NCBI RefSeq assembly: GCF_013122565.1 | Contig: NZ_CP053258.1 | DNA from: Escherichia coli | Lineage (GTDB): Bacteria > Pseudomonadota > Gammaproteobacteria > Enterobacterales > Enterobacteriaceae | Reading direction: 5' to 3' (one strand) | Length of the DNA stretch: 64,000 nucleotides | Part shown: positions 3,896-48,013 of the stretch, one piece after another | Layout: each line of letters begins with the position of its first letter | Position numbering within the stretch: position 1 is the stretch's first letter | Program-made: the position numbers and the translations under genes | Notes under the pieces: generated by a model | What the model saw: the letters and a program-made list of their open reading frames with translations, nothing else | Told to the model about the DNA's origin: nothing | Database searches by the model: none

Positions 3896-4243
<348 letters not shown>

Positions 4244-27004: not shown

Positions 27005-27207
27005 TATTTGCTCCGTAAAACGCAATCAAAATGAGGGTATTTGCGCCTACGGTGAGCTTTTTACGTGGGTTTGTCGCCAGCAAAAAAAATGCATTCAGAC
27101 GTCGTTTTTTGCCGCCTGAGATTTGTCTATTTTGTGATGTGATTCAAGGAATATAAAAAGAAGTGAGGATAACGCCTGATATGTGCTATCAGGCATTATT
27201 TGATGGA

Positions 27208-42314: not shown

Positions 42315-45188
42315 ATGACACAGACGTTAAGCCAGCTTGAAAATAGCGGCGCTTTTATTGAACGCCATATCGGACCGGACGCCGCGCAACAGCAAGAAAT
42401 GCTGAATGCCGTTGGCGCACAATCGTTAAACGCGCTGACCGGCCAGATTGTACCGAAAGATATTCAGCTTGCGACCCCGCCGCAGGTTGGCGCACCGGCG
42501 ACCGAATACGCCGCGCTGGCGGAACTCAAGGCTATTGCCAGTCGCAATAAACGCTTCACGTCTTACATCGGCATGGGTTACACCGCCGTGCAGCTACCGC
42601 CGGTTATCCTGCGTAACATGCTGGAAAATCCGGGCTGGTATACCGCGTATACTCCGTATCAACCTGAAGTCTCCCAGGGCCGCCTTGAGGCACTGCTCAA
42701 TTTCCAGCAGGTAACGCTGGATTTAACCGGGCTGGATATGGCCTCTGCTTCTCTTCTTGACGAAGCCACCGCTGCCGCCGAAGCAATGGCGATGGCGAAA
42801 CGCGTCAGCAAACTGAAAAATGCCAACCGCTTCTTCGTGGCTTCCGATGTGCATCCGCAAACGCTGGATGTGGTACGTACTCGTGCCGAAACCTTTGGTT
42901 TTGAAGTGATTGTCGATGATGCGCAAAAAGTGCTCGACCACCAGGACGTCTTCGGCGTGCTGTTACAGCAGGTCGGCACTACTGGTGAAATTCACGACTA
43001 CACCACGCTTATTAGCGAACTGAAATCACGCAAAATTGTGGTCAGTGTCGCCGCCGATATTATGGCGCTGGTGCTGTTAACTGCGCCGGGTAAACAGGGC
43101 GCGGATATTGTCTTTGGTTCGGCGCAACGTTTCGGCGTGCCGATGGGCTACGGAGGCCCACACGCGGCATTCTTTGCGGCGAAAGATGAATACAAACGCT
43201 CAATGCCGGGCCGTATTATCGGTGTATCGAAAGATGCAGCTGGCAATACCGCACTGCGCATGGCGATGCAGACTCGCGAGCAACATATTCGTCGTGAGAA
43301 AGCGAACTCCAACATTTGTACTTCCCAGGTGCTGCTGGCAAACATCGCCAGCCTGTATGCCGTTTATCACGGCCCGGTTGGCCTGAAACGTATCGCTAAC
43401 CGCATTCACCGTCTGACCGATATCCTGGCGGCGGGCCTGCAACAAAAAGGTCTGAAACTGCGCCATGCGCACTATTTCGACACTCTGTGTGTGGAAGTGG
43501 CCGACAAGGCGGGCGTACTGGCGCGTGCCGAAGCGGCTGAAATCAACCTGCGTAGCGATATCCTGAACGCGGTTGGGATCACCCTTGATGAAACCACCAC
43601 GCGCGAAAACGTGATGCAGCTTTTCAGCGTACTGCTGGGGGATAACCACGGCCTGGACATCGACACGCTGGACAAAGACGTGGCTCACGACAGCCGCTCT
43701 ATCCAGCCTGCGATGCTGCGCGACGACGAAATCCTCACCCATCCGGTGTTTAATCGCTACCACAGCGAAACCGAAATGATGCGCTATATGCACTCGCTGG
43801 AGCGTAAAGATCTGGCGCTGAATCAGGCGATGATCCCGCTGGGTTCCTGCACTATGAAACTGAACGCCGCCGCCGAGATGATCCCCATCACCTGGCCGGA
43901 ATTTGCTGAACTGCATCCGTTCTGCCCGCCGGAGCAGGCCGAAGGTTATCAGCAGATGATTGCGCAGCTGGCTGACTGGCTGGTGAAACTGACCGGTTAC
44001 GACGCCGTTTGTATGCAGCCGAACTCTGGCGCACAGGGCGAATACGCGGGCCTGCTGGCGATTCGTCATTATCATGAAAGCCGCAACGAAGGGCATCGCG
44101 ATATCTGCCTGATCCCGGCTTCTGCGCACGGCACTAACCCTGCTTCTGCACATATGGCAGGAATGCAGGTGGTGGTTGTGGCGTGTGATAAAAACGGAAA
44201 TATCGATCTGACTGATCTGCGCGCGAAAGCCGAACAGGCAGGTGATAATCTCTCCTGCATCATGGTGACCTATCCTTCCACCCACGGTGTGTATGAAGAA
44301 ACGATCCGTGAAGTGTGTGAAGTCGTGCATCAGTTCGGCGGTCAGGTTTACCTTGATGGCGCGAACATGAACGCCCAGGTTGGCATCACCTCGCCAGGCT
44401 TTATTGGCGCGGACGTTTCGCACCTCAACCTGCATAAAACTTTCTGCATTCCGCACGGCGGTGGTGGTCCGGGTATGGGACCGATCGGCGTGAAAGCGCA
44501 TCTGGCACCGTTTGTACCGGGTCATAGCGTGGTACAAATTGAAGGCATGTTAACCCGTCAGGGCGCGGTTTCTGCGGCACCGTTCGGTAGCGCCTCTATC
44601 CTGCCAATCAGCTGGATGTACATCCGCATGATGGGCGCAGAAGGGCTGAAAAAAGCAAGCCAGGTGGCAATTCTTAACGCCAACTATATTGCCAGTCGCC
44701 TGCAGGATGCCTTCCCGGTGCTGTATACCGGTCGTGACGGTCGCGTGGCGCACGAATGTATTCTCGATATTCGTCCGTTGAAAGAAGAAACCGGCATCAG
44801 CGAGCTGGATATTGCCAAGCGCCTGATCGACTACGGTTTCCACGCGCCGACGATGTCGTTCCCGGTGGCGGGTACGCTGATGGTTGAACCGACTGAATCT
44901 GAAAGCAAAGTGGAACTGGATCGCTTTATCGACGCGATGCTGGCTATCCGCGCAGAAATTGACCAGGTGAAAGCCGGTATCTGGCCGCTGGAAGACAACC
45001 CGCTGGTGAACGCGCCGCACATTCAGAGCGAACTGGTCGCCGAGTGGGCGCATCCGTACAGCCGTGAAGTTGCGGTATTCCCGGCAGGCGTGGCAGACAA
45101 ATACTGGCCGACAGTGAAACGTCTGGATGATGTTTACGGCGACCGTAACCTGTTCTGCTCCTGCGTACCGATAAGCGAATACCAGTAA
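42315..45188 (+). CDS. gcvP: glycine dehydrogenase (decarboxylating) P protein
   Basis: 957 aa. Confidence 0.95.
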
Positions 45189-45210
45189 TTCACTGATTCG
45201 ACTATCTTCT

Positions 45211-45232
45211 AAAGGCGCTTCGGCGCCTTTTT
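45211..45232 (+). terminator. gcvP intrinsic terminator
   Basis: aaaggcgcttcggcgccttttt. Confidence 0.8.
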
Positions 45233-45314
45233 AGCTTGTTAATAAAGTGCGCTTTGTGTGTCGGATGAAGCGTAAATATAAAATCCTGGAGTTCAATATA
45301 TGACAGGAGCGCCA

Positions 45315-45340
45315 GGCCTGATGAGCGGGGCGCATCAGGC
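45315..45340. repeat. REP-like palindrome in the gcvP-bglA spacer
   Basis: gcctgatg agcggggcg catcaggc. Confidence 0.5.
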
Positions 45341-45351
45341 ACATCGGGTAA

Positions 45352-46812
<1,461 letters not shown>

Positions 46813-47981: not shown

Positions 47982-48013
47982 GCCTGATAAGACGCGCCAG
48001 CGTCGCATCAGGC
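47982..48013. repeat. REP element
   Basis: gcctgataagacgcgccagcgtcgcatcaggc between yqfA and ygfZ. Confidence 0.8.

Follow-up and report, generated by a model that had tools for sequence, protein, structure and literature searches.

The window analysed here comprises 64,000 nucleotides of Escherichia coli DNA. It carries gcvP, the last gene of gcvTHP (gcvT, gcvH and gcvP all lie on the plus strand), facing the convergent gene bglA. Since the gcvP stop codon ends at 45188 and that of bglA (45352-45354) starts at 45352, the spacer between the convergent stop codons is 163 bp long (45189-45351). An earlier note on this DNA had described this spacer as apparently lacking ygfF and as holding only the gcvP terminator and a REP-like palindrome. 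The locus reads as follows, with N96 and L092 denoting two ygfF-bearing alleles and the OMP allele one in which a gene for an outer-membrane-protein-like product replaces ygfF.

42315-45188, plus strand: gcvP, glycine dehydrogenase, the P protein of the glycine cleavage system (open reading frame list and RefSeq annotation of matching E. coli loci).
45211-45232, plus strand: predicted intrinsic terminator of gcvP, an inverted repeat with an 8-bp stem (AAAGGCGC / GCGCCTTT), a TTCG loop and then a T run.
45234-45259, no strand: shared post-terminator segment, GCTTGTTAATAAAGTGCGCTTTGTGT, to which the corresponding positions of K-12, E. albertii and the OMP allele align.
45260-45289, no strand: putative decayed y-type REP, GTCGGATGAAGCGTAAATATAAAATCCTGG, colinear with the y REP of the N96/L092 BIME and with a better-preserved copy in the OMP allele.
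45290-45313, no strand: putative BIME linker remnant, AGTTCAATATATGACAGGAGCGCC, whose TTCAATAYAT aligns with the inter-REP linker of the N96/L092 BIME and of the OMP allele.
45314-45341, no strand: intact REP, AGGCCTGATGAGCGGGGCGCATCAGGCA, an inverted repeat with arms at 45316-45326 and 45330-45340.
45342-45351, no strand: the 10 nt preceding the bglA stop, CATCGGGTAA, which with the CA before them make up a 12-nt flank.
45352-46785, minus strand: bglA, 6-phospho-beta-glucosidase A, convergent with gcvP (RefSeq annotation of matching loci; RefSeq-style GTG start, the longest open reading frame reaching 46809).

The genes flanking the spacer are ordinary E. coli genes. BglA is 98.95% identical to its K-12 counterpart over 478 aligned positions (tblastn), and YqfB, encoded downstream of bglA, is 100% identical to that of K-12. 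The C-terminus of BglA reads ...KL* in the window, as in K-12, versus ...NL* in B2. At the nucleotide level gcvP diverges by 1.7-3.2% from three E. coli reference alleles (O157:H7, O145 and B2). The sequence looks natural, since its differences from the reference alleles fall overwhelmingly at third codon positions, nearly all of them in the case of gcvP, and are mostly synonymous. The nearest references are O145:H28 for bglA and O157:H7 for gcvP. The best complete E. coli genome matches the region 33000-57000 at 98.4% identity over 24 kb, and the exact 957-residue GcvP is absent from a collection of 15 billion proteins, so the source lineage does not appear to be closely represented in the collections.

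The spacer holds no trace of ygfF. With K-12 YgfF as query, tblastn detects no YgfF-like coding sequence in the 64-kb window (no match at E<=10), and YgfF of K-12 together with eight relatives (tblastn, word size 2) yields only chance matches of 4-9 residues in the spacer. The 163-bp, ygfF-less spacer of the earlier note thus stands on the stop-codon coordinates and on the tblastn result, and its suggestion that a ygfF homologue be sought elsewhere turned up none within the window; among E. coli genomes, ygfF DNA is found at this locus only. When the spacer is compared by blastn with outgroup intervals, the terminator is the sole match. RefSeq annotates nothing in the spacer, and the covariance models of Rfam 15 give no match at E<=1 between 44800 and 45800. 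Open reading frames at 45202-45342 (minus), 45231-45377 (minus) and 45300-45461 (plus) were rejected as genes because the spacer diverges by 13% between subtypes, because RefSeq does not annotate them and because they run through the REP or the terminator.

A probable BIME relic behind the gcvP terminator

The first element of the spacer is a GC-rich hairpin that starts 23 nt past the gcvP stop codon, with arms at 45211-45218 and 45223-45230 directly followed by TTTTT, and is thus predicted to act as a Rho-independent terminator. It folds with a centroid energy of -12.7 kcal/mol (z = -2.2), and the hairpin is kept after gcvP in Citrobacter, Kluyvera, Enterobacter and Pseudocitrobacter. A consensus terminator scan of 44900-45700 called nothing, but since folding and conservation across genera both reveal the hairpin, this null appears to reflect the limits of the scan rules.

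A BIME consists of two REPs in inverse orientation across a linker (PMC3479197, PMC2817692), and the remainder of the spacer is, judged by alignment, a worn BIME: after the terminator come a decayed y-type REP, a linker remnant and an intact REP. The terminator and the palindrome of the earlier note are therefore both present, but the word "only" has to be dropped, since a second, decayed REP and a linker remnant lie between them. The segment at 45234-45259 aligns not only with the alleles listed above but also, in reverse complement, beside the second terminator copy of N96 and L092. By our own count, 17 of the first 25 positions of the decayed y REP match the reverse complement of the published y REP GTAGGACGGATAAGGCGTTTACGCCGCATCCG (PMC3479197). 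Positions 45260-45313 are colinear with the y REP and linker of N96/L092 and of the OMP allele, but the right arm of the y REP is destroyed, so that its hairpin can no longer form. Positions 45260-45313 are therefore best described as a relic of a BIME rather than an intact BIME. Behind the terminator, the OMP allele and E. albertii have this terminator-BIME module in a better-preserved form that runs on past the REP. In N96 and in Escherichia sp. L092 the module is reversed and sits between two terminator copies; it was possibly turned, relative to the window, by inversion across the palindromic terminator.

As a REP we counted any imperfect palindrome, roughly 25-40 nt long, whose arms keep GCC(G/T)GATG ... 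CATC(C/A)GGC. The core of the intact REP, GCCTGATGAGCGGGGCGCATCAGGC at 45316-45340, shows such arms, 11 nt long and 91% complementary. Like the REPs and BIMEs of E. coli described by Gilson, Bachellier and Hofnung and known as RAYT substrates (PMC3479197, PMC2817692), it is an extragenic imperfect palindrome with GCCTGATG...CATCAGGC arms, it has further copies in the window, and beyond a linker remnant it faces what looks like an inverted y-type REP. REPs typically occupy the 3' ends of genes and are present in many copies per genome, and the location of this one, between two convergent stop codons, fits; on the minus strand it forms a stem-loop 11 nt past the bglA stop codon (RNA fold of -17.8 kcal/mol). 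The REP pattern occurs four more times in the 64-kb window (4022-4046, 4196-4220, 27174-27194 and 47982-48013), where chance would predict none, and two of these copies lie within 3 mismatches over 28 nt. The copies at 4022-4046 and 4196-4220 are canonical and have the same 25-nt architecture as 45316-45340; that at 47982-48013 is longer. The former two are identical 25-mers, 174 bp apart, and probably belong to a larger BIME cluster.

However, the element at the gcvP-bglA locus departs from the published systems in that its y partner is decayed, its linker is shortened and CCAG stands in place of the 5' GTAG, as it does in B2; the homologous REP of N96 and L092 has GTAG. Since GTAG at the 5' foot of the REP hairpin serves in recognition by RAYT (PMC3479197), the intact REP is probably no longer a RAYT substrate. 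It would thus be a relic, not an active element.

Alleles of the locus across E. coli

In DH1, a K-12 derivative, gcvP is followed by a 266-bp spacer, ygfF (744 bp, on the gcvP strand, annotated as an SDR family oxidoreductase), a 56-bp spacer and bglA. The ygfF gene of MG1655 is 100% identical to that of DH1, and a published table of K-12 gene order likewise places ygfF beside gcvP (PMC5100583). The earlier note had placed such a short-chain dehydrogenase gene between bglA and gcvP in K-12, and these three sources confirm the placement; direct adjacency of the two genes in K-12, which would have undone its argument, is found in none of them. Aligned with the K-12 interval, as that note had advised, the window shows 98-99% identity as far as 45234 and once more from 45352 onward; the 117 bp in between stand in place of 1020 bp in K-12. 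Beyond the first 62 bp, a global alignment of the K-12 spacer with that of the window returns only scattered short blocks that are not evidence of homology. K-12 (bglA-ygfF-gcvP, b2901-b2903) thus shares with the window the flanking genes, the gcvP terminator and the convergence of bglA with gcvP, but differs in carrying a G-rich palindromic repeat (an HPGQ element, PMC5100583), ygfF and a Y-like palindrome before bglA. The G-rich imperfect palindrome of the K-12 gcvP-ygfF spacer (GGGGAGAGGGTTAGGGTGAGGGG..., locus L001, 2255-2375), which corresponds to HPGQ elements 32 and 33 of PMC5100583, is absent from the window.

Neither arrangement is rare. Among 5426 complete E. coli genomes, 3057 contain ygfF DNA, always chromosomal and essentially once per genome (3061 places). 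The 117-bp core of the window spacer is present in 2372 of the 5426, in 2349 of them at a coverage of at least 80%, and 17 of the 5426 have the OMP-like gene instead of ygfF. The ygfF, short and OMP alleles are mutually exclusive, as 3053 + 2349 + 17 account for 5419 of the 5426 genomes. The ygfF-less spacer is thus a common, old and ordinary polymorphism of E. coli (about 44% of complete genomes, with ygfF present in about 56%), and the presence/absence polymorphism that the earlier note had suspected is borne out. Since about 2350 complete genomes share the spacer, the arrangement is not a quirk of assembly.

The short spacer comes in two subtypes. In one, 397 genomes are at least 99% identical to the window, among them O145 RM9872, whose spacer, like that of A30, is 100% identical to it. 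In the other, 1949 genomes are 80-90% identical, including O157:H7 and the B2 strain NRG 857C, with a spacer of 165 bp that is about 13% divergent across the 117-bp core. O145:H28, O157:H7 and NRG 857C nevertheless have the same ygfF-less architecture and the same joint.

The genomes that carry ygfF are themselves of more than one kind. Those of the K-12 type have the G-rich palindromic repeat upstream of ygfF, and those of the N96 type (ygfF 93.8% identical) have in that place a BIME with a copy of the gcvP terminator hairpin on either side. In the OMP allele, ygfF is replaced by a gene annotated as 'transporter', whose 297-residue product has a signal peptide and a Phenol_MetA_deg domain (E=1.4e-12). 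As read from sequence comparison, the locus thus has at least four structural alleles: ygfF with the G-rich repeat, ygfF with the inverted or duplicated BIME, the OMP-like gene, and the empty form seen in the window.

Several individual genomes show further variation. A terminator-BIME unit of about 173 bp is tandemly duplicated in Escherichia sp. GCA_004323655.1 (L092, 3596-4000; the corresponding N96-type region is L006, 2768-3000). The OMP-like gene occupies 3956-4849 in L090 and 3955-4848 in L091 and is preceded by AT-rich DNA. The E. albertii type strain (L010, 2467-2787) has sequence matching the OMP allele downstream of gcvP, on a contig that ends 321 bp past gcvP. E. coli 2017-02-2CC has IS621, of the IS110 family, between gcvP and ygfF (L009, 1968-2948); it carries a YgfF of the N96 type (WP_000150659.1), and N96 has its BIME at the position of IS621. 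The ygfF gene of E. coli EC2341 (L097, 701-1444) contains an internal stop and is annotated as a pseudogene, which suggests that ygfF is decaying even where it is retained. In E. coli HH97 (L007, 2266-3101), gcvP and bglA are separated by an 836-bp interval with heavily scrambled and unannotated ygfF sequence; this looks like assembly noise rather than biology.

Direction of the change and a proposed joint at the REP

The difference between the window and K-12 could in principle reflect loss or gain of ygfF. We scanned one genome per species with the GcvP C-terminus and searched the downstream DNA with YgfF, BglA and YqfB; among the matches listed, Escherichia is represented by E. albertii, with E. 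fergusonii and most cryptic clades lying outside the sample. Among these matches, the order gcvP-ygfF-bglA occurs in Enterobacter cloacae, Pseudocitrobacter faecalis, Citrobacter sp. FP75, C. werkmanii, Kluyvera and Superficieibacter, and gcvP-ygfF occurs in Rahnella and Yersinia, while the identity of YgfF to that of K-12 drops from 83% to 75% with phylogenetic distance. A protein search separates YgfF homologues into a group of at least 90% identity (Escherichia, Shigella) and one of at most 85% (Klebsiella, Citrobacter, Metakosakonia and others). Moreover, ygfF sits at this locus, with 93% nucleotide identity, in an unclassified Escherichia (GCA_004323655.1) whose gcvP and bglA are about 95% identical to those of E. 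coli. Since gcvP-ygfF-bglA is conserved in other enterobacterial genera and in this divergent Escherichia lineage, ygfF is, on comparative grounds, ancestral and vertically inherited, and the window represents a derived loss rather than K-12 an insertion. Such loss appears to be recurrent, as ygfF was deleted independently in Enterobacter sp. Bisph1 (L011, 6604-6887) and in Mangrovibacter yixingensis (L024, 6607-6766), again bringing gcvP and bglA together. However, the internal deletion in Bisph1 leaves the first ~15 and the last ~60 codons of ygfF, and in M. yixingensis the first ~9 codons remain, with bglA about 160 bp from gcvP, whereas the short allele of E. coli is devoid of any remnant.

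The sequence around the intact REP points to how the gene may have been lost. The window follows the terminator-BIME module to GCATCAGGCA and then passes to CATCGGGTAA and the bglA stop codon, whereas N96 and L092 continue with ATGTTGAGTTTGACATCAG. Up to GGCA (45338-45341) the body of the REP agrees with the z-type REP in the BIME of N96 and L092, and beyond that point the two diverge. In the ygfF-bearing L092, the palindrome between ygfF and bglA ends in ...GCATCCGGCACATCAGCTAA immediately before the bglA stop. The bases preceding that stop read GGCACATCGGGTAA in the window, GGCACATCGGCTAA in the B2 short allele and GGCACATCAGCTAA in L092, and the 12-nt flank of the window (CA plus 45342-45351) is homologous to the flank that follows the ygfF-bglA palindrome in L092. 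The intact REP thus looks chimeric, its left side coming from the BIME on the terminator side and its right bases from the palindrome downstream of ygfF, and we infer that the deletion joint lies at its 3' end, at GGCA. The earlier note had taken a REP-like element to mark the polymorphism; the REP does lie at the junction and, given its match to the module up to GGCA and to the L092 flank thereafter, appears to be the recombination joint itself.

We therefore consider it very probable that the 163-bp spacer is the ygfF-less allele of an old polymorphism, in which about 0.9 kb was lost, most likely by recombination or slippage from one REP to another. Dispersed REP copies are known to recombine and to give rise to chromosomal rearrangements, for example at the join-points of tandem duplications in Salmonella. 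Recombination between dispersed REPs would likewise be the cause here, although the outcome in E. coli would be a fixed deletion of about 0.9 kb and a single gene, deduced by comparison. The ancestral enterobacterial order would be gcvP, terminator, ygfF, palindrome and convergent bglA, and from it the whole of ygfF would have been lost, without a coding remnant, in the ancestry of part of E. coli. The partners in recombination or replication slippage would have been two REP palindromes, the z-type REP of the BIME beside the gcvP terminator and the REP-like palindrome between ygfF and bglA, with the crossover falling within their shared right arm GCATC(A/C)GGCA. In such an event, ygfF would have been lost along with the remainder of the module and the greater part of the palindrome downstream, and the gcvP terminator would have stayed untouched. 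The product would be a chimeric REP (45314-45341) that now provides the bglA transcript with a stem-loop at its 3' end. A single event suffices in this proposal, because the left side of the REP equals the terminator BIME and its right bases the palindrome downstream of ygfF. It would also be one old event, because both short subtypes share the joint despite their 13% divergence. The flanks of the spacer are mosaic: the identity of bglA in the window is 99.0% to O145 and 96.0% to B2, and gcvP comes nearest to O157. Homologous recombination of the flanks would thus later have carried the short allele from one lineage to another. The case for the crossover consists of a shared arm of about 10 nt and the 12-nt flank, and REPs can also undergo replacement or conversion independently. 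The predicted progenitor would carry, in order, terminator, y REP, linker, z REP, about 25 bp, ygfF, palindrome, CACATCAGCTAA and bglA. None of the sampled genomes has exactly this form, with the BIME in the orientation of the window followed by ygfF; N96 and L092 have the BIME inverted between two terminator copies, and K-12 has the G-rich repeat instead. The K-12 region upstream of ygfF, compared with the post-REP module of E. albertii and the OMP allele, gave one 11-mer (E=0.18) and one 9/10 match, neither of them significant.

Other histories can be envisaged. If the short arrangement were ancestral for Escherichia, ygfF would have been inserted or re-acquired on the way to K-12 and other strains of groups A and B1. 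The repeat-rich spacers that flank E. coli ygfF and differ between alleles would fit such a gain, as would the lack of ygfF in B2, which is often placed as early-branching. However, a gain is extremely unlikely: six other enterobacterial genera and the divergent Escherichia lineage have ygfF in identical position and orientation, the terminator-ygfF junction looks similar in Citrobacter and in N96 and L092, and the protein search revealed no close foreign donor, no foreign homologue exceeding 85% identity. Descent of the short allele from the OMP allele, by replacement of ygfF with the outer-membrane-protein-like gene and subsequent deletion of that gene, is nearly as hard to sustain and in our view very unlikely. 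While the window spacer is closer in its first 85 bp to the OMP allele (91-93% identity) than to K-12 (88% over 60 bp), and the linker motif TTCAATATAT occurs in both the spacer and the OMP allele, the latter has another hairpin, GTTACCCGCCGACTGGCGGGTAAC, beside the bglA stop and does not have the CACATCRGSTAA flank that the short allele shares with the ygfF-bearing L092; its z-type REP is, moreover, partly deleted in L090 and L091 but intact in the window.

A more serious contender, though still an unlikely one, is that an unrelated illegitimate event deleted ygfF and that the BIME or REP arrived, or was converted, only later, marking the site without having caused the loss. REPs and BIMEs are indeed mobile and variable at this locus, as illustrated by the G-rich repeat of K-12, the inverted BIME of N96, the tandem duplication in L092 and the IS621 of L009, and the missing exact progenitor is compatible with such a sequence of events. 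However, two events would then be needed where one suffices. Furthermore, the stretch from terminator to REP has a colinear counterpart in the OMP and E. albertii alleles, and because the module there continues past the REP it would predate the joint; the copy in the window ends exactly at the REP arm. Deletion from REP to REP thus remains the scenario that we favor.

YgfF and the turnover of the spacer

The immediate consequence of the deletion would be the loss of YgfF, a classical SDR (adh_short_C2 domain, E=1.5e-56) of the SDR63C type. YgfF is reported to have glucose 1-dehydrogenase activity in vitro (PMC10645960), and an independent critique accepts this assignment as consistent with the SDR63C subgroup (PMC12506659). 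As 44% of complete E. coli genomes are without it, YgfF is evidently dispensable, and ygfF should be viewed as an accessory gene of E. coli, which bears on the weight to be given to the reported glucose 1-dehydrogenase activity. It is possible that the gcvP-bglA spacer is a small recombination hot spot, in which REP/BIME sequences and a palindromic terminator generate the four or more alleles, and that selection on YgfF activity, rather than drift and recombination alone, maintains both states at intermediate frequency (56% and 44%) throughout the phylogroups of E. coli; we regard this proposal as rather improbable.

The feature itself is an ordinary and widespread polymorphism that public annotation already shows. 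The comparison adds a polarity (loss), a multi-allelic locus and a plausible REP-by-REP origin, without opening a new question. For annotators, it indicates that a missing ygfF is real, inherited and common to O157:H7, O145:H28 and B2, and neither an assembly error nor peculiar to one strain. If its proposed origin is correct, the chimeric REP would provide a natural example of REP-associated gene loss and would illustrate how fast repeat-filled 3' spacers may turn over.
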